Below are positions 1 to 57,193 of a DNA stretch of 64,000 bases, piece after piece. Source of the stretch: Anaerolineales bacterium (GTDB taxonomy: Bacteria > Chloroflexota > Anaerolineae > Anaerolineales > Villigracilaceae); NCBI GenBank assembly GCA_036524055.1, contig DATDCZ010000029.1:1042-65041 (forward strand), in the 5' to 3' direction. The translations under genes and the position numbers were made by a program. The notes below the pieces were generated by a model, which saw only the letters and a list, made by a program, of their open reading frames with translations, searched no databases and was not told the origin of the DNA. Position 1 is the first letter of the stretch. The number at the start of each line of letters is the position of its first letter.

Positions 1-903
1 GCCATAGGCTGTCGCGCGGAGAGGTCGGCTTGGGTGAATGGCCGCGAAGAGCGGGTTGGCTACATCGGCCAGATCCGCGTCGCCGAGGGCTTTCGCGGAA
101 CGTGGCTCGTGCAGCAGGGGGCACAATGGTACTGCGAAGCCGGCGGCCGCGATCTTCTCTACTTCGGCGTGATCGCGAGCGAGAATCCGCGCGCCCGCAA
201 ACTTCTGACTGGAGGCCGGCTCCCTGGGGGGGTATATGTGCGGCGGTTATGCGGCATGACAACCTATGCCATTGCCCTTGGGCGCCAGCGTCAGCCTCGG
301 GTGCAAGGCATTCGCATTGGCGCCGGATCAACGGAGGGATTGGGCGCGATCGTGGACTTCGTCCACCGGCACGGGGCTCGACGCCAGCTCTTCCCTGCTT
401 ACACCGAGGAAGACTTCATCGGTGGAGTGAGGTTGCGCGGATTGAGTCCCCAGGACATTATGGTGGCGAGCAGGGACGGAGCGATCTGCGGCGTGATGGC
501 GGTGTGGAACCAGGCAGCCTACAAGCAGGACGTAGTGGATTCCTACAGTCCGACACTTCGCCGCATTCAGCCGTTCTACGACGTTGGGGCGCGGTTGCTC
601 GGGTTCGCACCACTAACAGCACCCGGACAGGCGATTCCCCTTTCGTTCGCAGCTTGCATCTGCGTCGCCAACGACGATCTGGAAGTGATGCGAGCCTTGC
701 TGCGCGTATCTGAGGAGCATGCGCGCCAGAACGGCAAGGCATTTTTCATGCTCGGACTTGCCGACAAGGATCCGCTTCTGGCAGCTGCCTCCACCACGAT
801 CCATATCACTTATCGAAGCGACCTGTATGCCGCAGCGTGGTCGCCTGACCGGCTAAAGCAGCTAGATGATCGAGTCCCATACATCGAGATCGCCACGCTG
901 TGA
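1..903 (+). CDS. GNAT-like acetyltransferase family protein, 5' end cut by window edge
   Basis: Frame 1 is open from base 1 to TGA 901-903. IGQIRVAEGFRGTW resembles the GNAT acetyl-CoA binding motif (Q/R-x-x-G-x-G/A). Function weakly supported. Confidence 0.45.
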   Translation, partial: AIGCRAERSAWVNGREERVGYIGQIRVAEGFRGTWLVQQGAQWYCEAGGRDLLYFGVIASENPRARKLLTGGRLPGGVYVRRLCGMTTYAIALGRQRQPRVQGIRIGAGSTEGLGAIVDFVHRHGARRQLFPAYTEEDFIGGVRLRGLSPQDIMVASRDGAICGVMAVWNQAAYKQDVVDSYSPTLRRIQPFYDVGARLLGFAPLTAPGQAIPLSFAACICVANDDLEVMRALLRVSEEHARQNGKAFFMLGLADKDPLLAAASTTIHITYRSDLYAAAWSPDRLKQLDDRVPYIEIATL

Positions 904-2087
904 ACAAGCCGGGCGATGACAGGACGGATCGCATGCATTCACATCGCTTGACACGCTGGGAAGCTACCTCGCTGATGGTGGGTGCCGGAGTTGGCGCCGG
1001 CATCATGGCCGTGCCGTTTCTTGCACAGCATGTGGGCCTCATCGGACTGGCCATCATCCTTCCGGTCGCATGGGCGGTCAGCGCTCTCATCCACTTGATG
1101 CTGGCGGAGGTGCTGTTTCGCACCGGCAAGGACATGCAGATCGTGGAACTGATGCGGCTATACGTGCTTCGAGGCCGCGTCGGCCAGTGGTTGCTGTGGG
1201 CAGTCTTCGCCCTGTTGAGTGTTGCCTTCCTGGCCAACCTTGCGGCGTACGTATCTGGTGCGGGTGAGATCGTTGCGAATCTTACCGGGCTCAACACGCT
1301 GGTGGCAGACATCGTCATCTACGTCATCTCTGCCGGCGTGGTGTTCTACGGGCTGAAGGCGGTCGGCGTTGCGGAGCGATTTGGCGCGCTGGCGCTATTG
1401 GGTCTCATTGCCGCCATCAGTGTGGGCGCGGTTTCCATGCCGTTCAAGCTACCGCTTTGGTCCCCGGGCTCGGCAACCCAATGGCTCGCCCTCTACGGTA
1501 TGGTGATGTATGCACTATGGACGTTTTACAGCGTGCCGCAAGTAGTCCAGGGCTTGGGAACCGACCGCCTGGGGGCCGTGCGGGCCATCACGATCGGCCT
1601 TGGCATCAACGGTGTGTTGACAGCGATTGTGGCGCTCATCGCCCTGGGCATCTCCAACCCAGTCACTGAGGTCGCCATCATCGGCATCAGCGAACGTCTT
1701 GGTACTTGGGCTGGCGTAGTCGGTTCGCTTTTCATCGTGTTCGCCCTGATCACAAGTTATTGGTCGGTCTCGCTGGCGTTGGCGGACATCCTCCGCCAGA
1801 GGACAAACATGTCCGGGAAGCTCGCCTGGTTGTTGGCGACGCTCCCATCACTGCTCATCCTGTGGATCGGAGCCTGGCAGTTTCTGCAATGGCTGCGGCT
1901 GGCCGCGGGCGCTACCGCCCTCGTGGTTGCACTTATCACTCTGCCGATGTATCGGCAGGCGCATCGCACAGGCGCGGTCAGCGACCCGGGTTGGTCTCTC
2001 GGTCGGTGGGGAAAGCCTTGGATGCTTTTCCTAATGCTGTTGGCGTTGATCCTGATGGCGGTGGGATCCTTGGTCGCGGTGGACTAA
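900..2087 (+). CDS. Amino-acid permease-like polytopic membrane transporter (Trp/Tyr-permease-like family)
   Basis: 395-aa ORF, strongly hydrophobic with many predicted helices. N-terminal SLMVGAGVGAGIMAVPF resembles the IGAG-hL-x-hP signature of aromatic/hydroxy amino-acid permeases. GTG 900 overlaps the upstream stop; alternative ATG at 933. Confidence 0.6.
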   Translation: MNKPGDDRTDRMHSHRLTRWEATSLMVGAGVGAGIMAVPFLAQHVGLIGLAIILPVAWAVSALIHLMLAEVLFRTGKDMQIVELMRLYVLRGRVGQWLLWAVFALLSVAFLANLAAYVSGAGEIVANLTGLNTLVADIVIYVISAGVVFYGLKAVGVAERFGALALLGLIAAISVGAVSMPFKLPLWSPGSATQWLALYGMVMYALWTFYSVPQVVQGLGTDRLGAVRAITIGLGINGVLTAIVALIALGISNPVTEVAIIGISERLGTWAGVVGSLFIVFALITSYWSVSLALADILRQRTNMSGKLAWLLATLPSLLILWIGAWQFLQWLRLAAGATALVVALITLPMYRQAHRTGAVSDPGWSLGRWGKPWMLFLMLLALILMAVGSLVAVD

Positions 2088-2111
2088 TGCACCGGGTAAT
2101 CCTATCCGATC

Positions 2112-2906
2112 TCAGGCATTCAGACGATTGACGAGCTCAGGAAGTAGGCCGAGGTGGCCGATCTCGAAGTAGCCATGGTTCGGCGCATCGACGTGTTCGT
2201 GAGACCAGGTGTGCTCATAGGGCACAAAGACTGCGCGGCCGTCAATTTCGATCACAGGCAGGATGTCCGACTTCAGTGAATTCCCGACCATGATGAACTT
2301 GTCGATCGGAATGCCATGCCGCTGCAAGAGCGAACGGTAGCTCTCCGCGGTCTTATCCTGAATGATCTCTACGTATTTGAAGAGGGGTGTCAGGCCGGAC
2401 CGCTTGAGCTTCTCACTCTGCTCCAGCAGGTCGCCTTTGGTGATCAGCATGAGGTCGTGGTCGCGCGCGAGAGCAGTCAGGGCGGAGGCGGCGTGCTCAA
2501 AGAGCATCACATCGGCGGCCAGCATGTCGCGTCCCAACTGCAATATGGAATCGATCACGGCGCCGCTAACCTTGCCGCCCGTGATAGCCACGGCAGCCTC
2601 GATCATGGACAGCGTGTAGCTTTTGATGCCATAGCCGTACCAGCCGATATTGCGCACCTCGATCTCTCCGAGGGCCTTCTCGATCGCATCCGGTCCGGCA
2701 AAGTCCTGCAGGAGCTGCTTGAACGCGCCTCCCGCCCGCTGATAGTGGGTCTCGTTGTGCCACAGTGTGTCGTCAGCATCGAAAGCGATGAAGAGTCGCC
2801 GTGCGGTTGGTAGCTGGGTGCCGGAAGGTGTTGTCACAGCGTGGTCTTCTCCCCGATCTGACGAACTGGCATTCGGTTTTTGAGACCGGTATGGAGATAC
2901 TGACAT
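2112..2906 (-). CDS. HAD-superfamily hydrolase
   Basis: DxDxT motif in FIAFDADDTLW, later ITKGD and VGNSLKSD motifs typical of HAD motifs III/IV. Confidence 0.75.
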   Translation of the reverse strand: MSVSPYRSQKPNASSSDRGEDHAVTTPSGTQLPTARRLFIAFDADDTLWHNETHYQRAGGAFKQLLQDFAGPDAIEKALGEIEVRNIGWYGYGIKSYTLSMIEAAVAITGGKVSGAVIDSILQLGRDMLAADVMLFEHAASALTALARDHDLMLITKGDLLEQSEKLKRSGLTPLFKYVEIIQDKTAESYRSLLQRHGIPIDKFIMVGNSLKSDILPVIEIDGRAVFVPYEHTWSHEHVDAPNHGYFEIGHLGLLPELVNRLNA

Positions 2907-3125
2907 TCAGATTATCGCACGGGCCCGGTCGGATTTCAATAGCGTGCCCGATCTTCATACCGTGACACATACTCGCGCCGTGCAGCGCATGCCTCCGTCC
3001 CGGAATGGCCCGAAATCTGGTGACGTTTGTCCATTAGGTGAGTCGACTTGGGACCGTATCATGTTAGAATGCGCATCCGACGTGCGGCGGCTACACTTGG
3101 CAACATACCTCTGGAGCGGCCTTCC

Positions 3126-3845
3126 ATGAAGTTAAGCGGCGCATCGTCCGCAGAGGTACTCGAATTCCTGCGCGTCGTCCCCCTATTCTCGAAGATCAAT
3201 GGCTCCACGGCCAGAAACCTGGCCACCCAGTGCCACTTTCGCCATTTCGACAAGGGCGAACGGATCTTCCACGAATCCGACATGGCCGAGTGCGCCTTCC
3301 TGGTGCGTTCCGGGAAGATCTCCATCATCCTTAACAGCACCGATGGCCGTGAGCTGGTTATCGACGAAATGCGCCCCGGCGACATTCTGGGGGAGGTCGG
3401 TCTCTTAACTCGGACAAGCCACACCGCCAGCGCCGTTGCGCGTACACATTGCGAAGTTCTCGCTCTTCCCCGCGAGCTTTTCCTCCGCATGATCGATGAC
3501 GAGCCGGTCCTTGCACGCCGGATTCTGGATGTCACGGCCCATCGCCTGCAGCGGAGCGCCGTCCGCGAGACCGCCCTGGCATTCCTGGACGCCCAGGCCC
3601 GCCTCGCCCGCTACCTCCTTGCCTTGGAGGCCGAAGAGCATGACAAGGGCTATGTGACCGCCTCGCAGGAGGATCTGGCTCGGGGAACGGGCCTCATTCG
3701 CCAAACGGTCGCCAAGGTGCTGGGCAGGTGGCGTCGCGACGGCTGGCTTCTGACGGGCAGGGGAAGGGTTCTGCTCCTCAACCGTAAGGCTTTGGAGCAG
3801 ATCGAGAGAGGCGATATTTCGGTCTCGCTTGTGTCGCCGAGGTGA
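3126..3845 (+). CDS. Crp/Fnr-family transcriptional regulator (cNMP-binding domain + C-terminal HTH)
   Basis: VPLFSKINGSTARNLA...FDKGERIF.E.D...FLVRSGKISI is a cNMP-binding beta-roll. C-terminal ASQEDLARGTGLIRQTVAKVL is an HTH. ATG 3126 chosen over TTG 3048 because family members start about 10-15 aa before the VPLF motif. Confidence 0.85.
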   Translation: MKLSGASSAEVLEFLRVVPLFSKINGSTARNLATQCHFRHFDKGERIFHESDMAECAFLVRSGKISIILNSTDGRELVIDEMRPGDILGEVGLLTRTSHTASAVARTHCEVLALPRELFLRMIDDEPVLARRILDVTAHRLQRSAVRETALAFLDAQARLARYLLALEAEEHDKGYVTASQEDLARGTGLIRQTVAKVLGRWRRDGWLLTGRGRVLLLNRKALEQIERGDISVSLVSPR

Positions 3846-3916
3846 CAGACAGCCGGCGAACACTGACCTATACTGCGGGTAACGTTGAGACCGGAATGAC
3901 CAAAAAGGAGCCCGCA

Positions 3917-4903
3917 ATGAAGGTCGCGAAGAAGGTCCTGAAGAAGCTCTCCGCAGTTCGGGCCGTCCTGCCCAACGACGAGCGCGAAGTTCTCGACGCT
4001 ATCGTCCTTGGGGAGGTTCACGCCCACAAGTTCGGCAAGGTCGGTAAAGCGGGAAAAGCCAGCAAGGCTGGCAAAACCCAGGTCAAGGCGCACAAATTCG
4101 GCAAGTCCGTCGGCAAAGCCGCGAAGGCAGGCGGCAAGACACAGGTGAGGGCACACATGTTTGGTAAGGTCGGCAAGGTTGGGAAGGCCGCCAAGGCGGA
4201 TAAGACCCAGGTCAAGGCTCACATGTTCGGCAAGGTCGGCAAGGTTGGCAAGGCCGCCAAGGCGGATAAGACCCAGGTCAAGGCTCACATGTTCGGCAAG
4301 GTCGGCAAGGTTGGCAAAGCCGCCAAGGCGGACAAAACCCAAGTGAAGGCCCACAAGTTTGGCAAAGTTGGTAAGGTCGGCAAGGCTGACAAGACCGCCA
4401 AGCAGGTGAAGGCTCACAAGTTTGGCAAGGTCGGCAAGATCGGAAAAGCCGATAAGACCGCCAAGCAGGTGAAGGCTCACAAGTTTGGCAAGGTTGGCAA
4501 GGTCGGCAAGGCTGACAAGACCGCCAAGCAGGTGAAGGCTCACAAGTTTGGCAAAGTCGGCAAGGTCGGCAAGGCCGACAAGACCGCCAAGCAGGTGAAT
4601 GCTCACAAGTTTGGCAAGGTCAGCAAAGCCGGCAAGGCTGGTAAAGCCGGCAAGCAGGTCAAGGCCCACAAGGTTGGCAAGGTTGGTAAGGTCGGCAAGG
4701 TTGGTAAGGCCGGCAAGCAGGTCAAGGCCCACAAGCTGGGCAAGGTTGGGAAAGTTGGTAAGGTTGGCAAGGCTGGCAAGCAGGTCAACGCACACAAACT
4801 GGCCAAGACTAACCAGGCTCCGGCCAAGCTGATCCCTGCCACAACACTCCCTCCGATCGAGTTCGATCCGAATTCTGAGGAGTATCACCCGGTCCAGCAA
4901 TAA
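3917..4903 (+). CDS. Polycationic tandem-repeat protein: 34-aa N-terminal region, 12 x 21/22-aa Lys-rich units (consensus KAH[KM]FGKVGKVGKA(A)K(A)DKT(A)(K)QV), 38-aa Pro-rich/acidic tail
   Basis: ATG 3917 is preceded by AGGAG at 7-nt spacing. The repeat period is kept in frame (63 or 66 bp) over 768 bp, and wobble-position differences between units preserve the peptide. No family recognised. Confidence 0.7.
   Translation: MKVAKKVLKKLSAVRAVLPNDEREVLDAIVLGEVHAHKFGKVGKAGKASKAGKTQVKAHKFGKSVGKAAKAGGKTQVRAHMFGKVGKVGKAAKADKTQVKAHMFGKVGKVGKAAKADKTQVKAHMFGKVGKVGKAAKADKTQVKAHKFGKVGKVGKADKTAKQVKAHKFGKVGKIGKADKTAKQVKAHKFGKVGKVGKADKTAKQVKAHKFGKVGKVGKADKTAKQVNAHKFGKVSKAGKAGKAGKQVKAHKVGKVGKVGKVGKAGKQVKAHKLGKVGKVGKVGKAGKQVNAHKLAKTNQAPAKLIPATTLPPIEFDPNSEEYHPVQQ
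4019..4786 (+). repeat. 12 tandem in-frame DNA repeats (five 66-bp units and seven 63-bp units) inside the Lys-rich ORF
   Basis: Direct reading: units 4 and 5 (about 4204-4335) are almost identical at the DNA level, and units 6-9 (about 4336-4587) are near-identical 63-mers. A degenerate 13th unit starts at 4787. Confidence 0.9.
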
Positions 4904-13590: not shown

Positions 13591-13630
13591 ATCGGGGGCA
13601 GGATGCGCTCGCCCCGTCCAAAGCGAAACC

Positions 13631-13659
13631 TTGACAACTTAGTACATATGTTCTATAAT
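13631..13659 (+). promoter_or_regulatory. Consensus sigma70-type promoter TTGACA-17-TATAAT with embedded LexA (Cheo-type) box candidate AGTACATATGTTCT (13641-13654)
   Basis: TTGACA 13631-13636, 17-nt spacer, TATAAT 13654-13659. The box matches GAAC-N4-GTTC at 11 of 12 positions, with the ATAT centre of the B. subtilis consensus. Confidence 0.6.
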
Positions 13660-13740
13660 TCATCGGATGCATACTGCCGCTCTTTCTTGGCATACACGGC
13701 CCGGGTCATGGGTTCTTCTGAGGCGAATTAGCCGAATGGC

Positions 13741-13826
13741 ATTCGAACCTCATTCGAACCTCGGTGGAGGCGCTCCTCTGTACCCGTAAGTTGCCCGTAG
13801 CCGGCGCATTCGAATTTTTAAAACGC
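13741..13826 (+). repeat. Copy 1 of a repeat of about 85 nt (three CATTCGAA motifs); probable decayed relic of the 3' end of a paralogue of the 56020-56505 gene
   Basis: ATTCGAACCTCATTCGAACCTC (13741-13762) is identical to the reverse complement of 56048-56069. Downstream TACCCGTA..GCATTCGAA..TTTTTAA also aligns with the reverse complement of 55982-56030. Confidence 0.75.
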
Positions 13827-13911: not shown

Positions 13912-14799
13912 ATGACGATCAAGGTCCATCTTGTCGACGGCACTTATGAGCTCTTCCGGAACTTCTACGGTGCGCCTCCCAAGAAGGCGAAGGATGGCAG
14001 CGAGGTCGGTGCAACCCTCGGCCTGCTCAGGAGCATGTTGCTGCTTGTCACCAGCCCTGGCGTAACGCACGTAGGTGTGGCGTTCGACCACGTGATCGAG
14101 TCTTTTCGCAACGAGCTCTTTACGGACTACAAGACGGGAGACGGCGTGGATCCCGCCCTCATGGCGCAATTCCCACTCGCAGAAGAGGCGGTCGCAGCCC
14201 TGGGCATCGTCGTTTGGCCAATGGTGAAGTTCGAGGCGGATGACGCTCTTGGCACTGCGGCAAAACGTTTCCGGCAGGACAAGTCTGTGCGGCAGGTCGT
14301 CGTATGCTCCCCGGACAAGGACCTGGCTCAGCTGGTTTCGGGCAAGCGCGTGGTGTGCTGGGATAGGCGCCGCGAGATCGTCATCGACGAAGAGGCCGTG
14401 GTCGAGAAGTACGGCGTCCGGCCCGCTTCGATGCCGGATTGGCTGGCCCTCGTCGGCGATAGCGCGGATGGCTACCCCGGCGTACCCGGTTGGGGAGCGA
14501 AGTCGGCCTCAATGGTCCTGGCCCGCTATAAGCACATCGAGGCCATACCTGAGAAATCCGTGAAGTGGCGCATTTCAACACTCAGCGCCGGACGCGCCGC
14601 AAGCCTGGCTGAAAGCCTGTCTGCACACAGGGCTGAGGTCATGCTGTACAAAACGCTGGCAACGCTGCGATTCGACGTCCCTTTGCGGGAGGGCCTCGAC
14701 GATCTCGAATGGCGAGGCGCCCGTCGCCAGCTGCGCCATTTGTGCGCCGTCATGGGCGACGAAAGAATACCTGAGCGCGTCCCGCGCTGGCGGGCATAG
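13912..14799 (+). CDS. 5'-3' exonuclease / flap endonuclease (Pol I N-terminal-domain-like)
   Basis: VHLVDGTYELFR N-terminus, FDH..ESFRNELFTDYK, and the H3TH region LVGDSADGYPGVPGWGAKSA. SD GGGAGAG upstream of the ATG. Confidence 0.85.
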   Translation: MTIKVHLVDGTYELFRNFYGAPPKKAKDGSEVGATLGLLRSMLLLVTSPGVTHVGVAFDHVIESFRNELFTDYKTGDGVDPALMAQFPLAEEAVAALGIVVWPMVKFEADDALGTAAKRFRQDKSVRQVVVCSPDKDLAQLVSGKRVVCWDRRREIVIDEEAVVEKYGVRPASMPDWLALVGDSADGYPGVPGWGAKSASMVLARYKHIEAIPEKSVKWRISTLSAGRAASLAESLSAHRAEVMLYKTLATLRFDVPLREGLDDLEWRGARRQLRHLCAVMGDERIPERVPRWRA

Positions 14800-51861: not shown

Positions 51862-53154
51862 ATGCCCAAAACCCATACGAAGACCAAACTGGCCAACGGC
51901 CTGAGCGTACTGCTGAAAGAAATCCACACAACACCGCTGATATCGCTGTGGGTCTGGTACCGCGTGGGCTCGCGAGACGAGGTTCCGCCGATCACCGGCA
52001 TCTCGCACCTGGTAGAGCACATGCAGTTCAAGGGCACGCGACGATTTCCGGCCGAGGTCATGGACAAGGCTGTGGCGCGCGAGGGCGGTACGCGCAATGC
52101 CTTCACATTCCTGGATTGGACCACGTACTTTGAGACCATGCCGGCCAACAAGATCGACCTGGCGCTGCGGCTCGAAGCCGACCGGATGGTGCACAGCCTG
52201 TTCGATGCGGGCGAGCTGGCTTCCGAACGGACCGTGGTGATATCCGAGCGGGAGGGGCATGAGAACGAACCGATGTTCCTGCTCAGCGAGGCAGTGCAGC
52301 ATGCCGCATTCCGCGTACATCCATATCACCATGAGATCATCGGCGATATGGCGGACTTGCGAACGATGCAGCGCGAGGACCTGTACCGGCATTACAAGTC
52401 CTATTACGTCCCGAACAATGCGATCATCAGCGTGGCCGGCGATTTCGATGCCGCGACCATGCTTGAGAAGATCCGCAAAGTCTTCGAGCCCATTCCTGCA
52501 GGAAACATCCCGCCGCGCCTGAGTCGGCTGGAACCGGAGCCGAGGGGCGAAACGCGGGTGACGGTGGAGGGCCCGGGCGAAACAGCCTATGTCCAGGCGG
52601 CATACCGCTTCCCACCGGCATCGCACCCGGATTTTTTCGCGCTATCCGTTCTGGACAGCCTGCTGGCGGGACCGAGCAACCTGAACATGTTCGGGGGCGG
52701 CGGCATCTCGAACAAGACATCGCGCCTGTACCGCGCGCTGGTGGATAAGCAATTCGCCGTGGGCTTTTCGGGCGGATCCAACTTGACGGTGGACCCATTC
52801 CTATACTCGATCTCGATCACCATGCATCCAAAACGAAAGCCGGAGGAGGCGCTGGCCGCGCTGGACCGCGAGATAAGCCGGATACAGAACGAGGCAGTTG
52901 CGCCGGGCGAGGTCGCCCGGGCCATCAAGCAGGCCAAGGCGAACTTTGCGTACGGAACTGAGAACATTAGCAACCAGGCTTTCTGGCTGGGGTACGCCGA
53001 GATGTTTGCCACCTATGCGTGGTTCGAGACGTACATTGACAAGCTGGCGGCAGTGACGCGGCACGAGATCCGTGAAGCGGCACAGAAGTATCTGCAACCC
53101 CGCTCGCGAGTCGTGGGAATCTATGTTCCGACCGGCAATGGTGCGGCGAAATGA
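51862..53154 (+). CDS. M16-family zinc peptidase (catalytic subunit)
   Basis: Inverted zinc motif HLVEHMQFKG (HxxEH) near the N-terminus; 430 aa. Confidence 0.9.
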   Translation: MPKTHTKTKLANGLSVLLKEIHTTPLISLWVWYRVGSRDEVPPITGISHLVEHMQFKGTRRFPAEVMDKAVAREGGTRNAFTFLDWTTYFETMPANKIDLALRLEADRMVHSLFDAGELASERTVVISEREGHENEPMFLLSEAVQHAAFRVHPYHHEIIGDMADLRTMQREDLYRHYKSYYVPNNAIISVAGDFDAATMLEKIRKVFEPIPAGNIPPRLSRLEPEPRGETRVTVEGPGETAYVQAAYRFPPASHPDFFALSVLDSLLAGPSNLNMFGGGGISNKTSRLYRALVDKQFAVGFSGGSNLTVDPFLYSISITMHPKRKPEEALAALDREISRIQNEAVAPGEVARAIKQAKANFAYGTENISNQAFWLGYAEMFATYAWFETYIDKLAAVTRHEIREAAQKYLQPRSRVVGIYVPTGNGAAK

Positions 53155-54841: not shown

Positions 54842-55174
54842 CTAAGGCCGAGAGGACCGACGTGCCCGTCTTGCGACGGGCTGGAAGAGCAGCCGGCGGG
54901 AAAAAGTGGCGGGCCTGGTTTCGGCACGTGCGTACAAGCTCAGGGGGCGATCAACGTCGATACCAATCCACAAATGATGCGGCGGAAGGGCCGCGTATTC
55001 CCGGAGCGCAACGCCGCCCACGCGTGAGCCATCTCTCGGAATTGCGCCGGGAGGAACGAGGCATAGCGTGGGCTCGCGGTGAAAGCGGCTCCGGTAGTAA
55101 GCGGTGGCGCGGGCGACGGCATTTTGAAGGCCCAGCTGCGGACCATCATCAAGCCAGAAGATCCCAGTAAGCAT
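54842..55174 (-). CDS. Hypothetical protein (third gene of the SOS-box cassette)
   Basis: 110-aa ORF. GAGGTG SD 5 nt upstream overlaps the stop of the preceding gene (translational coupling). No motif recognised. Confidence 0.45.
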   Translation of the reverse strand: MLTGIFWLDDGPQLGLQNAVARATAYYRSRFHREPTLCLVPPGAIPRDGSRVGGVALREYAALPPHHLWIGIDVDRPLSLYARAETRPATFSRRLLFQPVARRARRSSRP

Positions 55175-55183
55175 CAGAGCACC

Positions 55184-55951
55184 TCAATCCAAATCGGGGA
55201 GCCAGAAGGGCAACCAATGGTCGGCCTCCCAGACCGCAAACTGCGATGGCGGCTGCAACGTACCAGCGGGAAGTGTCGTGGACCGATGCAGGATTGCAGC
55301 GGACTGCGCTTCACGAATGTAGCCGAACAGACGGAAGCGGAATGGCGCGAGGAAGGGGGCCACATCGGGTGCAGGCGTCATATTCAGAGTAATGAACGGC
55401 CAAAGGCCCGGCGGTGTTCTGTGCATCAGCTCGTGCGCCGCGCCGCGGAGATCAGCATCGGAAGCCAGGGCTTCGAAGCCATCGATGAGGAGAACGAGGG
55501 AGGATGAGCGAGGATCCGTCGTCCGTTGGACGGCCGAAGCCAGATACCCCGTGGTGAGGGCATGATGAAAAGCCAGCACAGCCTCGCAGTTGTCCGAGCC
55601 TTCGAAGGCCGCCCATTCGCGCGGGTGTTCTGTGAGGACGACATAGCGAGCCCGCCCTGGATCATGGGTGAGTTCGAGGGCACGCGCGATGGTCTGCAGG
55701 AGGCGAGTCTTGCCGGCGCCGGCGTCGGCGGCGACAAGGACAGGTGAGGGCGATGGATCGGCCAGGTTGAGAAGCACCGGCCGCTGATCATCGGCAAGCC
55801 CGATGAAGAGGGCAATGGACGGCAGCGGCCCCATGGATGCAAGCGCGGCCGTGAGTGACCGGCTCCCGGAATCCGGATGACGGGTGAGGCTCGTTCGTCG
55901 AGAAGTCTGCAAGGAGAGCGGCGGTGGGGTGGAATTCGTAAGCGGGTTCAT
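55184..55951 (-). CDS. Minimal FtsK/SpoIIIE-like P-loop ATPase domain protein
   Basis: Pattern GLADDQRPVLLNL...VLVAADAGAGKT (Walker A), LVLLIDGFEAL (Walker B), then RFRLFGYIREAQSAAIL. This follows the order of FtsK/SpoIIIE motor domains. 255 aa with no transmembrane or gamma domain. GGGAG SD upstream. Confidence 0.55.
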   Translation of the reverse strand: MNPLTNSTPPPLSLQTSRRTSLTRHPDSGSRSLTAALASMGPLPSIALFIGLADDQRPVLLNLADPSPSPVLVAADAGAGKTRLLQTIARALELTHDPGRARYVVLTEHPREWAAFEGSDNCEAVLAFHHALTTGYLASAVQRTTDPRSSSLVLLIDGFEALASDADLRGAAHELMHRTPPGLWPFITLNMTPAPDVAPFLAPFRFRLFGYIREAQSAAILHRSTTLPAGTLQPPSQFAVWEADHWLPFWLPDLD

Positions 55952-55981
55952 GTCTGCTCCCTGGGAATTGAATTTGCAGCG

Positions 55982-56069
55982 GCGATTAAAAAAGTTCGAA
56001 TGCGGCCCGTACGGCTGGTCTACGGGTAAATTCCGAGGTCTGAGTCGGAGGTTCGAATGAGGTTCGAAT
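55982..56069 (-). repeat. Copy 2 of the repeat of about 85 nt (covers the last codons and 3' flank of the 56020-56505 gene)
   Basis: The reverse complement of 56048-56069 is identical to 13741-13762, and the remainder aligns with indels to 13781-13826. Confidence 0.75.
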
Positions 56070-56505
56070 CGTCCGGATGGAGATCAGGAAGCAATTCGCG
56101 GGCGTGGCGAAGACTCCGAAGAATTCGAAACAGCTCCGGATCGCGGCGTTTGCGGCGGGCAGCTGAATTGATCAGCGAAATGATCAGCCCCAGGTAGTTC
56201 ATGATGGCGCGTTCATAGGCGAGCCAATCCTTCTCCGGCGCGGCCTTCTGGGCGTCGAGCAGGCGAGCGAGATGGACGCGCGCCAGGCCGATCTCAAAGT
56301 CCGGATCCAGGGTGGAACGCGGATTCTGCAACGCGGCGAGCTCTCGCGGCAGGCGGCGGGAGTAAAGTCCATGAACGAGGCGGTTTGTGTTGCCCTGCTG
56401 GCCGCCTCGCCGCCTGGACTTGGAGGAAGGCGTTGGAGGGGGCATTTCAACGGGGAGGTTCTGCCGGTCCGTTGACGACGGAGGGTCTGAGGGTGTCGGT
56501 TGCAT
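56020..56505 (-). CDS. Hypothetical protein: Pro/Ser-rich N-terminus, basic RRRGGQQGNTNRLVHGLYSRR motif, helical C-terminus
   Basis: ATG 56505 has GAGGA 5 nt upstream and lies downstream of the promoter at 56554-56581. The 213-aa ORF-track version (start 56661) would contain its own promoter. Confidence 0.55.
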   Translation of the reverse strand: MQPTPSDPPSSTDRQNLPVEMPPPTPSSKSRRRGGQQGNTNRLVHGLYSRRLPRELAALQNPRSTLDPDFEIGLARVHLARLLDAQKAAPEKDWLAYERAIMNYLGLIISLINSAARRKRRDPELFRILRSLRHARELLPDLHPDDSNLIRTSDSDLGIYP

Positions 56506-56538
56506 GGGTATCCTCGCTTTGGCAAAAGGGACGGAATC

Positions 56539-56581
56539 CAGAACAGATGTTCTAATTATAGGTGGAAGCCCGATTTTGTCA
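56539..56581 (-). promoter_or_regulatory. Near-consensus promoter TTGACA-16-TATAAT followed at once by LexA (Cheo-type) box AGAACATCTGTTCT
   Basis: Read on the minus strand: TTGACA (56581-56576), TATAAT (56559-56554), and a 14-bp palindrome at 56552-56539 matching GAAC-N4-GTTC exactly and overlapping the expected transcription start. Confidence 0.6.
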
Positions 56582-57193
56582 AGGGCAGGGAGGCGGGCAA
56601 TCCGGGTCGCGCAGCGCCGATCGGGGAACCCACGTTTTGTCGGCGCCCGCGCGAGGAACACCTCGAGCGCACCACTTCATGAGCCCAGCCAGGCGGTTTG
56701 TACGTCAGTCTGCCACGCGAGTTGGTCGAGCATCATCGACGGGCATCAGGGGAGGCCCCGAAAAGAACGGGACCTTCGACAGCTTGAAGGCGCTGAGAGG
56801 GACGGGCTCGGTTCCAGGGTTCTCTGAAAGTAGGCAGGACGCAGCGACACAATGCCCAGAGGCTTACGACAAAGGAGGCCCCAAGGCAGACTTGTCCGTA
56901 CGGGAGGCCATGAGCCGTGATCGAACGGAGATCGAATTCGCGATTGAGGGGCTGACGCAAGTCGTCCAAGGTGTGCGTAGCGCGTGAAAAGGAAATTACC
57001 AGTGAGAATCCGGGAATTGGGCTGGGGCGCCCGCGCGAGAATGGGCATAGGGTGCGGTTCTCGCATATAATTGGCACACAGACGAGGGGGAGGAGCGAGA
57101 CGTGCCGCACGTGAGAGGAGGTGAGGAGCCGCGCGACAAGTCCACGTCCAAAGAAATCTGAGCATCACTTTCTTTTCTCAAATGGAGGAGTAC

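Follow-up and report, generated by a model that had tools for sequence, protein, structure and literature searches.

The window, a 64-kb stretch of DNA that was analysed as a whole, carries on its minus strand a cassette of three open reading frames, A, B and C, behind a near-consensus promoter and a candidate LexA operator. A conserved nucleotide element lies at the junction of A and B, and a second copy of it follows a second SOS-type promoter on the plus strand. The features are as follows.

56577..56582, minus strand: -35 hexamer TTGACA
56555..56560, minus strand: -10 hexamer TATAAT, with a 16-nt spacer from the -35 hexamer
56540..56553: candidate LexA (Cheo-type) operator AGAACATCTGTTCT, a 14-bp palindrome
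56020..56505, minus strand: ORF A, 161 aa, carrying GNTNRLVHGLYSRR
55985..56069, minus strand: conserved nucleotide element, covering the final codons of A and spacer sequence between A and B
55184..55951, minus strand: ORF B, 255 aa, with DAGAGKT (Walker A) and LLIDGFE (Walker B)
54842..55174, minus strand: ORF C, 110 aa; residues 1-75 form a conserved core, and the tail is basic and variable
13622..13660, plus strand: second SOS-type promoter TTGACA-acttaGTACATATGTTC-TATAAT, with a one-mismatch box between -35 and -10
13741-13825, plus strand: second copy of the element; the two copies share an exact repeat of 22 nt, where 0 are expected by chance

The two hexamers of the cassette promoter together score 12/12 consensus positions in the promoter scan, and this promoter is one of two promoter-like sites found between 54500 and 57300, where 0.5 would be expected. 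A single T separates the -10 hexamer from the palindrome, which covers the expected transcription start of the cassette. Promoter, palindrome and the three minus-strand reading frames of 161, 255 and 110 aa are all present as the original prediction had them, apart from its coordinates, every one of which was 1 base too low. In Gram-positive bacteria, GAAC-N4-GTTC is established as the binding site of LexA (PMC3323433). There are two copies in the window, one at 56541-56552 and one at 52267, the latter within an M16 peptidase gene. Shuffled versions of the window contained a mean of 0.82 copies, in line with the earlier estimate of about one chance match per 64 kb, and two or more copies were present in 19 of 100 shuffles. 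The box is thus not significant by itself; its weight comes from its position and its conservation.

The conservation was followed in lexA promoters of the order and in loci carrying B and C. The lexA gene of this genome lies outside the window, and the nearest evidence on a lexA operator comes from a relative in the clade that has A (L083/L212). In 80/80 Anaerolineales lexA loci fetched, the lexA promoter has GAAC-N4-GTTC placed between its -35 and -10; as the motif sits in lexA's own promoters, lexA appears to be autoregulated through it in this order. Seventeen distinct B-C loci preserve the arrangement TTGACA-N16/17-TAtAAT-T-AGAAC-N4-GTTCT, and around the promoter their DNA diverges. This layout persists down to 34-37% identity in protein B and in two genomic contexts, either beside acpS and the M16 genes or beside holA. 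The -35 reads TTGACA or TTGACT in all orthologous cassette promoters, and the -10, always at the same place, reads TATAAT, TACAAT, GATAAT, TATTAT or TAAAAT. An additional B-C locus, L090, has a one-mismatch box placed between -35 and -10. Ten loci have B-C at ~6 kb from lexA, and in these the lexA and cassette boxes are the sole exact matches in ~20 kb. The GC3 gene-map heuristic served only to flag intergenic boxes; it missed B and C and chose an antisense ORF. Taken together, the predicted SOS (LexA) control of the cassette, as originally proposed, is strongly supported by the 80 lexA promoters and the 17 B-C loci, a one-mismatch box within the TTGACA/TATAAT promoter of a 5'-3' exonuclease gene elsewhere in the window counts in its favour, and we infer LexA binding at AGAACATCTGTTCT and induction by damage from the motif, its position and its conservation.

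B consists of a disordered N-terminus of ~30 aa followed by one P-loop NTPase domain (~220 aa) of the FtsK/EccC fold, with no membrane, alpha or gamma (KOPS) domain. Its AlphaFold model has a pLDDT of 86 and a pTM of 0.84, and Foldseek searches with the model returned EccC (4nh0/4n1a, E 7e-11), the FtsK motor (1e-9), EssC and TcpA at the top, with E values of ~1e-11 to 1e-6 and TM scores of 0.6-0.7 across this set. Among PDB sequences, the B family profile found EccC at 2e-13. In Pfam, B of the window has no PF01580 (FtsK_SpoIIIE) match and gives only sub-threshold NACHT and AAA_16 matches; its distant relatives P0241 (37.2 bits), P0187 and P0207 do clear the FtsK_SpoIIIE cut-off. The EccCb model of NCBIfam matched B at E 0.006, with 14.9 bits against a cut-off of 346. 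The FtsK/SpoIIIE-like fold first proposed from the motif order was thus recovered by structure prediction and profile search alike. Pfam, NCBIfam and PADLOC assign none of the three proteins, for which the original prediction had likewise named no family with confidence.

The B family has 369 clusters at 50% identity (E <1e-30) and is common in environmental metagenomes. Its Walker A is of the form xDxxxGKT and its Walker B region of the form hhhhD(G/D)hE, as in EccC D3. In 185 family sequences the nucleotide-binding residues are well kept (K81 of Walker A in 95%, T82 in 91%, D157 of Walker B in 96%), and residue 158, immediately after the Walker B Asp, is G in 50%, D in 39% and N in 5%, and never a conserved Glu. 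No Arg reaches 80% conservation in these sequences. In alignment with FtsK, the best of them, R207 (76%), falls in the RIAF region and may be an Arg finger; the Asp-Asp at Walker B in 39% of the members might support slow hydrolysis. ATPase or translocase activity of B is therefore conceivable. The family is acidic, with a median pI of 5.3. The missing catalytic Glu, the lack of a strictly conserved Arg and the acidic character make a DNA pump doubtful, and the DNA-pumping idea that had accompanied the original prediction is weakened accordingly. Judged by these residues, B seems closest to the non-catalytic or regulatory type of EccC D2/D3 domain.

Several other assignments were considered for B and set aside. 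PADLOC reported a local mad8 match (E 1.9e-6) over the P-loop region only, residues 47-108; no further MADS genes lie beside it, and the locus does not correspond to a known anti-phage defence system. An ImuA/SulA-like identity found no profile match, and there is no imuB or dnaE2 nearby. NCBIfam presumably includes an ImuA model, and B gave no such match there. A toxin-antitoxin reading was also dropped, as the one Zeta-toxin match is faint (E 0.014) and B has an FtsK-type fold.

In every B locus seen, C was found next to B. Between the B stop codon and the ATG of C there are 9 nt, and the GAGGTG Shine-Dalgarno sequence of C overlaps the stop codon; this close spacing is in keeping with the translational coupling that had been claimed for the 110-aa protein. 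C has no Pfam or PDB relative; PDB sequence-profile matches of C and A, such as antibody light chains and gp41, are chance. Its AlphaFold model, built from 17 sequences, is poor (pLDDT 50). B and C are both free of hydrophobic segments. From these loci, B-C is the conserved core of the cassette, with A outside it, and the invariable adjacency of the two genes suggests that their products may interact.

Only 16 homologues of A were found, and A is absent from loci of the L001/L003/L087-L090 type. A is, by this distribution, a clade-restricted accessory gene, presumably a late addition outside the core. The basic motif noted earlier in the 161-aa protein is present as GNTNRLVHGLYSRR, and the family motif reads RRGGQxGNTNRLVHGLYS, with helices after it. 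In the alignment the homologues all begin at the position of Met21, and the true start of A may therefore be at 56445, giving a protein of 141 aa. A has no Pfam family, and its PDB sequence-profile search gave chance matches only. Among the PHROGs, phrog_19659 (function unassigned) is matched by 13/16 members of the family (best E 5.8e-6), and there are faint matches to the small-terminase families phrog_509 (E 0.028) and phrog_1889 (E 0.047). No tblastn match to A was found in 50,697 phage genomes.

The element at the A-B junction is built of TCGAAC direct repeats, so that its other strand reads GTTC-N7-GTTC. It runs in the order ATTCGAACCTC ATTCGAACCTC, variable hairpins, TTACCCGTA and GCATTCGAAC, with a T-run at the end. 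In L098 the element is located 3' of the stop codon of A, and the constraint on it must therefore be at the nucleotide level. The second copy in the window is found downstream of the 13622..13660 promoter and is followed by a 5'-3' exonuclease gene at 13912-14799 (Pfam 5_3_exonuc_N, E 7.6e-36; 5_3_exonuc, E 3.6e-21). The element is thus common to two SOS-type transcripts of this genome and may be an additional regulatory signal. A metagenome scan with the pattern TCGAWCCTCAWTCGAAC matched at least 120 stretches, nearly all of those listed being chance; the real copies among the matches listed are those of L098, L103 and L178 only.

What kind of signal the element might be was considered in two ways. 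As an RNA structure it was unconvincing, with a folding z of only -1 to -2.2 and one compensatory change against several uncompensated ones, and an Rfam search of the promoter, A and spacer region returned noise only. Its antisense strand resembles the 3' half of tRNA-Tyr, with z ~5 in two copies. A tRNA origin was rejected, as the local alignment to tRNA-Tyr is significant in just 2/6 copies; neither ARAGORN nor Rfam calls a tRNA at the element.

acpS and a pair of M16 peptidase genes usually neighbour B-C, and the conserved synteny also includes a Pyr_redox_2 gene. Across the B-C loci the neighbours are acpS, M16 peptidases, a glycosidase, tRNA genes or holA; the cassette of the L001 clade is directly preceded by three tRNA genes. 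The chromosomal neighbourhood of B-C is conserved down to relatives of 34-37% identity. The module can also be lost: B is gone and A remains in L211, and both B and C are gone and A remains in L212. From these losses we conclude that the B-C module is dispensable and its parts separable. No integrase, relaxase, capsid gene or att repeats were found around the cassette in any locus, and none of the B-C loci has WXG100, EccB/D/E or EssA/B genes. A profile scan of 2.9 million viral contigs gave 37 pattern matches to B, of which 0 were confirmed. The earlier suggestion of a mobile or conjugative remnant does not fit these observations for B-C, which, to judge from its conserved synteny and its absence from viral contigs, would not belong to a mobile element.

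We consider it reasonably probable that the cassette is a LexA-regulon operon of Anaerolineales-type Chloroflexota, chromosomal and vertically inherited, in which B acts as a switch together with C. In the undamaged cell, a LexA dimer would sit on AGAAC-N4-GTTCT, abutting the -10 of the near-consensus sigma-70-type promoter, and block initiation. Upon DNA damage, RecA-stimulated self-cleavage of LexA would free the promoter, and A, B and C would be made. B, having kept its nucleotide-binding residues (the GKT and the Walker B Asp), could serve in switching or assembly as an ATP-binding protein, either working alongside the small protein C or being loaded by it. Given that it has neither the catalytic Glu nor a strictly conserved Arg finger, such a role is the most likely one for B, rather than that of a processive DNA pump. 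Their target might be a DNA-damage checkpoint or a DNA-transaction step, such as segregation or division control or a repair complex, which is a guess held with low confidence. A would be a clade-specific basic helical protein, and the TCGAAC element a second cis element. The B-C operon very probably encodes an undescribed DNA-damage-response function of this bacterial group.

The alternatives differ mostly in what they make of B. It could translocate DNA as a true hexamer, a minimal ring of FtsK beta domains that damage induces so that DNA is moved, cleared or segregated, C being its loader or specificity factor. Motor domains of FtsK rank with the best structural matches to B (TM ~0.65-0.71), phage FtsK-like translocases match it equally well, the family keeps Walker A and the Walker B Asp, R207 stands at the FtsK RIAF position, and DNA work would suit an SOS setting. 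However, no sizeable part of the family has a Glu after the Walker B Asp, no Arg is strictly conserved, the acidic family lacks the alpha domain and the KOPS-reading gamma domain, and the nearest relatives in sequence and structure, EccC D2/D3, do not handle DNA; we regard this reading as unlikely. B-C might instead be the lineage-specific SOS checkpoint of division or segregation in these filamentous bacteria, binding FtsK or divisome proteins as a functional counterpart of SulA, YneA, SosA or ChiZ. SOS regulons usually hold a lineage-specific, non-homologous division inhibitor (PMC6851548, PMC4211646), no other candidate was seen near lexA, the module is dispensable, and an FtsK-like domain without catalytic residues could conceivably poison or titrate FtsK-type rings. 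Against this stand the known Gram-positive inhibitors, which are small membrane proteins whereas B and C have no hydrophobic segment, the identity of B to FtsK of only ~13-16%, and the fact that no locus links B-C to division genes, so that we find the checkpoint rather unlikely.

Two further explanations question the setting instead of the biochemistry. The cassette could be what is left, domesticated or in decay, of a mobile element under SOS induction, whether a prophage, a PICI-like island or a conjugative element of the actinomycete type; A would then be a DNA-binding protein like the small terminases, the TCGAAC repeats its pac-like site and B an FtsK-type packaging or transfer ATPase. 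The repeat element is found at the 3' end of A, a location in which pac sites are often situated. The PHROG matches of A, the antisense likeness to tRNA-Tyr, the tRNA genes directly upstream in the L001 clade, the gene loss in the A clade and the existence of packaging ATPases with the FtsK fold all point the same way. On the other hand, the small-terminase matches reach only E ~0.03, A is late, clade-restricted and outside the core, mobile-element hallmarks flank the cassette in no locus, phage genomes yielded no tblastn match to A and viral contigs no relative of B, and B-C keeps its chromosomal position in its most distant relatives. This origin is quite improbable. It is also conceivable that the palindrome arose by chance or serves a regulator other than LexA, which would leave the operon unconnected with DNA damage; 64 kb should contain 1-2 exact matches at random. 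This is highly improbable in view of the identical motif in all 80 lexA promoters and in the 17 cassette promoters, fixed relative to the -10, and of the ten 20-kb loci with no exact matches besides the two boxes.

Returning to the LexA-regulated switch, its parts can be drawn together into a single, more daring picture. B would be an EccC-D3-like receptor ATPase that has been released from the secretion machine and, on being switched by its partner of 75 aa, halts or diverts chromosome segregation or septation when the DNA of multicellular Chloroflexota filaments is damaged; B-C would thereby represent a new class of SOS effector. One clade would have added protein A, acting on the TCGAAC element, also present in the leader of the SOS exonuclease, as a post-LexA layer of control common to several SOS transcripts. 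As a whole we regard this picture as improbable.

The SOS response of the Chloroflexota has hardly been studied, and our literature search found neither a described LexA regulon of the Anaerolineae nor an SOS-controlled FtsK/EccC-like protein. A very clean phylogenetic footprint now links a two-gene module to LexA, and B-C offers a handle on how these abundant filamentous bacteria react to DNA damage. B would also be a stand-alone, probably non-catalytic EccC/FtsK-type domain recruited outside secretion and classical DNA pumping, and the TCGAAC element, in two SOS-type transcripts, may add a further regulatory signal.

Among known systems, the EccC/EssC ATPases of type VII secretion (D2/D3; PDB 4nh0, 4n1a, 6j19, 9jv8, 4lya) are the best structural and sequence matches of B. 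EccC and B have in common the lead-in motif (I/L)G(L)xxDG(L)PVxL(N/D), the Asp at the second position of Walker A (GDTECGKS in EccC D3, ADAGAGKT in B) and, for D2/D3, a Walker B of the form hhhhD(D/G/N)xE without a catalytic Glu right after the Asp. EccC/EssC carry three tandem domains on a membrane anchor, whereas B is a single free-standing soluble domain of ~220 aa, under predicted LexA control, paired with a protein of 75-aa core and with no T7SS genes nearby. The FtsK/SpoIIIE motor (PDB 2ius, 2iut, 6t8b) shares with B the RecA-like beta-domain fold (TM 0.63-0.71) and a Walker A. Its N-terminal membrane, alpha and gamma domains and its DE catalytic pair are all missing from B, which differs further in its Arg finger, not strictly conserved, in its acidic family and in the lack of a PF01580 match for B of the window.

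Like SulA, YneA, SosA, ChiZ, DinI and ImuA, the cassette module is predicted to be LexA-repressed; it shares with them a small size, confinement to a single lineage and dispensability. SulA and ImuA also have a RecA fold and lack full ATPase function. None of these proteins has sequence or profile similarity to the cassette proteins, which moreover lack a membrane segment and adjoin no imuB or dnaE2. The palindrome in the cassette operator is identical to that of the Cheo-box LexA operators (GAAC-N4-GTTC) of Firmicutes, Actinobacteria and Dehalococcoides, and it overlaps the core promoter as Cheo boxes do in classic SOS genes. In comparison with such sites the operator itself is nothing unusual; the novelty lies in the set of genes behind it.

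Reading of the minus strand placed the three cassette ORFs, here called A, B and C, behind a promoter and a palindrome:

56582-56577, minus strand: -35 hexamer TTGACA, preceded by c
between the hexamers, minus strand: spacer aaatcgggcttccacc
56560-56555, minus strand: -10 hexamer TATAAT, followed by a single t
56553-56540, minus strand: palindrome AGAACATCTGTTCT, the candidate LexA box
56020-56505, minus strand: ORF A, 161 aa
55184-55951, minus strand: ORF B, 255 aa
54842-55174, minus strand: ORF C, 110 aa

The original prediction had recognized both promoter and palindrome, with every coordinate one base too low. ORF C starts 9 nt past the stop codon of B, which its Shine-Dalgarno sequence overlaps, and its 3' end comes within three bases of acpS, a convergent gene. 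GAAC-N4-GTTC is an established LexA site in Gram-positive bacteria (PMC3323433). The 64-kb window contains two exact matches against 0.82 expected, the other being located within an M16 peptidase gene, and therefore the box by itself proves nothing. The cassette promoter scored 12/12 in a promoter scan that picked out only 2 promoter-like sites between 54500 and 57300 (expectation 0.5).

Evidence for LexA control comes from related loci. With the C-terminal half of the LexA encoded beside the distant cassette L001 as query, 80 lexA loci were sampled from Anaerolineales and Chloroflexota genomes. All 80 carry an exact GAAC-N4-GTTC, most commonly as GAACAGGCGTTC, between a TTGACA -35 and the -10 of the lexA promoter, which is the classic geometry of autoregulation. 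The LexA of Dehalococcoides also uses this site. In 10 of the 80 loci, a B-C pair is found ~6 kb downstream of lexA, and across these stretches (~20 kb each) exact boxes occur only at lexA and before B. The same arrangement, TTGACA or TTGACT, 16-17 nt, a TATAAT-like hexamer, T and AGAAC-N4-GTTCT, was found at 17 distinct B-C loci: the window, L001, L003, L004, L006, nine other lexA-linked loci, L087, L088 and L089 (the tenth lexA-linked locus is L001's own genome and was counted under L001). The box of L088 lies 13 nt farther downstream than in the other layouts, and in L090 the stretch separating the -35 from the -10 contains GAACATATGTGC. Loci with the promoter and box reach B identities as low as 34-37% and occur in two neighbourhoods, acpS with M16 peptidases or holA, and the DNA flanking the promoter elements has diverged among B-C loci. 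Loci retaining A alone or A with C also keep the box, exactly in L098, L103 and L211. On this comparison, it is very probable that the cassette is LexA-repressed. The comparison strongly suggests that LexA, on a box abutting the -10 and covering the expected start site, would keep the cassette shut, and that LexA cleavage after DNA damage would release its transcription.

Two features of the lexA and lexA-linked loci can be added. Villigracilis-type lexA leaders all share a conserved TAGCACAAATGAGCGAAGAATGCT block just 3' of the -10, ~20-45 nt past the lexA box (e.g. L008 9640-9665; also L026 and other lexA loci), the L085 version being the more palindromic AGCACAAATGTTTGC; the block could serve as another, degenerate site for LexA, or it could form an RNA structure in the leader. 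In L001 (5985-6003) and the nine other lexA-linked loci, the B start codon lies 5 nt past the box (TAATATG) and has no Shine-Dalgarno sequence. If transcription begins within the box, the B mRNA of the L001 clade would be nearly leaderless.

A second SOS-type promoter is found elsewhere in the window, and a non-coding element is shared between the two transcripts:

13622-13660, plus strand: promoter TTGACA-acttaGTACATATGTTC-TATAAT, whose -35 and -10 enclose a LexA box with one mismatch
13741-13825, plus strand: second copy of the element, with a 22-nt exact repeat (0 expected by chance)
13912-14799, plus strand: 5'-3' exonuclease gene, 295 aa (Pfam 5_3_exonuc_N, E 7.6e-36)
56069-55985, minus strand: element of ~85 nt, running from the final codons of A into the spacer between A and B

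The promoter lies ~250 nt upstream of the exonuclease gene, which is likely a further SOS gene of the same genome. In both transcripts the element stands between the SOS-type promoter and the main gene. Its order is ATTCGAACCTC ATTCGAACCTC, ~20 variable nt, TTACCCGTA, more sequence, GCATTCGAAC and TTTTTT; it contains two TCGAACCTC repeats with an 11-bp period, which read GTTC-N7-GTTC on the opposite strand, and, past TTACCCGTA, a third ATTCGAAC before the T-run. Further copies were located in L004 (3518), L006 (3797), L098 (1319), L103 (1035), L178 (172), L211 (~6370) and L212 (~6390); those of L004, L006, L103, L211 and L212 are in orthologous cassettes. The element overlaps the end of ORF A in the window and lies past the A stop codon in L098, which argues that the constraint acts on nucleotides. 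In RNA folding, the second and third TTCGAA pair around two hairpins ahead of the U-run, which looks like a terminator or attenuator, with weak z-scores and scant covariation. Read on the antisense strand, two copies look like the 3' half of tRNA-Tyr. The element is a candidate attenuator or protein-binding site, or may be a relic derived from tRNA-Tyr.

The cassette is flanked by acpS, two M16 peptidase genes, a gene for a 250-aa protein and a Pyr_redox_2 gene. Synteny, proposed originally as a check, is conserved: the acpS/M16 setting recurs in the window, L001, L003-L006, L088, L090, L211, L212 and the contig carrying the B relative P0209, and a holA-adjacent site is the second conserved position of B-C. 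None of the examined cassette loci showed an integrase, a relaxase or structural genes, and the B profile had no confirmed match among 2.9 million viral contigs. Shared neighbourhoods without mobile-element genes or viral relatives thus point to B-C as a vertically inherited chromosomal module, and argue against the suggested remnant of a mobile or conjugative element. The module is dispensable: L211 has lost B, so that A leads directly into C, and in L212, A is the sole remaining cassette gene, behind a box with one mismatch.

L211 (3986-3997) and L212 (3909-3920) also have a lone GAACGCATGTTC / GAACGCCTGTTC box at a distance of ~80 nt from tRNA-Thr(tgt), with a decayed TTGACA ahead of it. 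It looks like a relic of the ancestral cassette promoter, apparently left near the tRNA genes after the cassette had been cut off from them by a glycosidase gene and by A, which has a new promoter. Beside the distant B-C pair of L087, positions 1-4793 encode a 1090-aa SIR2-STAND-FGE-sulfatase protein, a reverse transcriptase and an Avd-like protein; the flank resembles a diversity-generating retroelement or defence island and is probably unrelated to B-C.

Close homologues of protein B number 65 and are 250-265 aa long. An exhaustive profile search gave 369 clusters at E <= 1e-30 and 1041 at E <= 1e-10, nearly all free-standing proteins of 220-330 aa. The window's B has only sub-threshold P-loop matches (NACHT, AAA_16 and EccCb, E 0.006), and three more distant relatives pass the Pfam FtsK_SpoIIIE cut-off. 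The AlphaFold model of B is confident (pLDDT 86, pTM 0.84), with ~30 disordered N-terminal residues. Its top PDB matches are EccC (4nh0 and 4n1a, E ~1e-10), along with the FtsK motor, single-domain EccC D2/D3 structures, EssC and TcpA; HerA, RecA and Rho rank far lower. The family profile also matches the EccC sequence (E 2e-13), and phage FtsK-like proteins are equally good matches to the fold. The label FtsK/SpoIIIE-like is therefore correct at the fold level, while in its details B is nearer to the regulatory EccC type. Among 185 aligned members, conservation is 91-96% for GKT and 96% for the Walker B Asp; the position after this Asp is occupied by Gly in 50%, Asp in 39% and Asn in 5%, rather than by Glu, and no Arg reaches 80% (highest R207, 76%). 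The median pI is 5.3. Modelling and alignment show B as a one-domain EccC/FtsK-fold protein that keeps the nucleotide-binding residues and is missing the canonical catalytic ones. A few members have long N-terminal extensions (180-430 aa), namely P0207 (433 aa), P0209 (581 aa) and P0220 (678 aa). P0209 and P0220 are without any Pfam domain, and the Pfam matches of P0207 are confined to the ATPase domain; the extensions might hint at partners or function.

Protein C follows B in every B-C locus, distant ones included, and the two are inseparable in most genomes. Its conserved core of 75 residues reads M.xG(I/M)(F/L)W(L/F)D..P...L......A..YY...(F/Y)...P.LC.V.P......R....P.H.W(I/L)G. C has no hydrophobic segment and matched no family or solved structure, and structure modelling gave no usable model. 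Protein A is 100% identical to VIU38_02065 of Anaerolineales bacterium, which places the window in a metagenome-assembled genome of Anaerolineales. It has only 16 homologues, all within the window's clade. Its basic motif RRRGG.PGN.N.L.HG.YS is invariant and followed by helices; 13 of the 16 members match phrog_19659 (function unknown), and matches to small-terminase PHROGs are faint.

We infer that B would act with C as an ATP-dependent switch or scaffold, and that a processive DNA pump is the less likely role for B. The cellular target could be a repair complex, or the control of segregation or division. Neither an SOS-controlled FtsK/EccC-like protein nor the Anaerolineae SOS regulon was found described in the searchable literature. 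Alignment shows that both Walker features of the B family, Asp second in Walker A and a Walker B region of the form hhhhD(G/D)hE, are shared with EccC D3 (GDTECGKS and VVDDYE). The operator and regulatory logic of the cassette are textbook, but its gene content is not: it appears to be a new SOS regulon module that joins a stand-alone EccC-type domain to an orphan partner protein.
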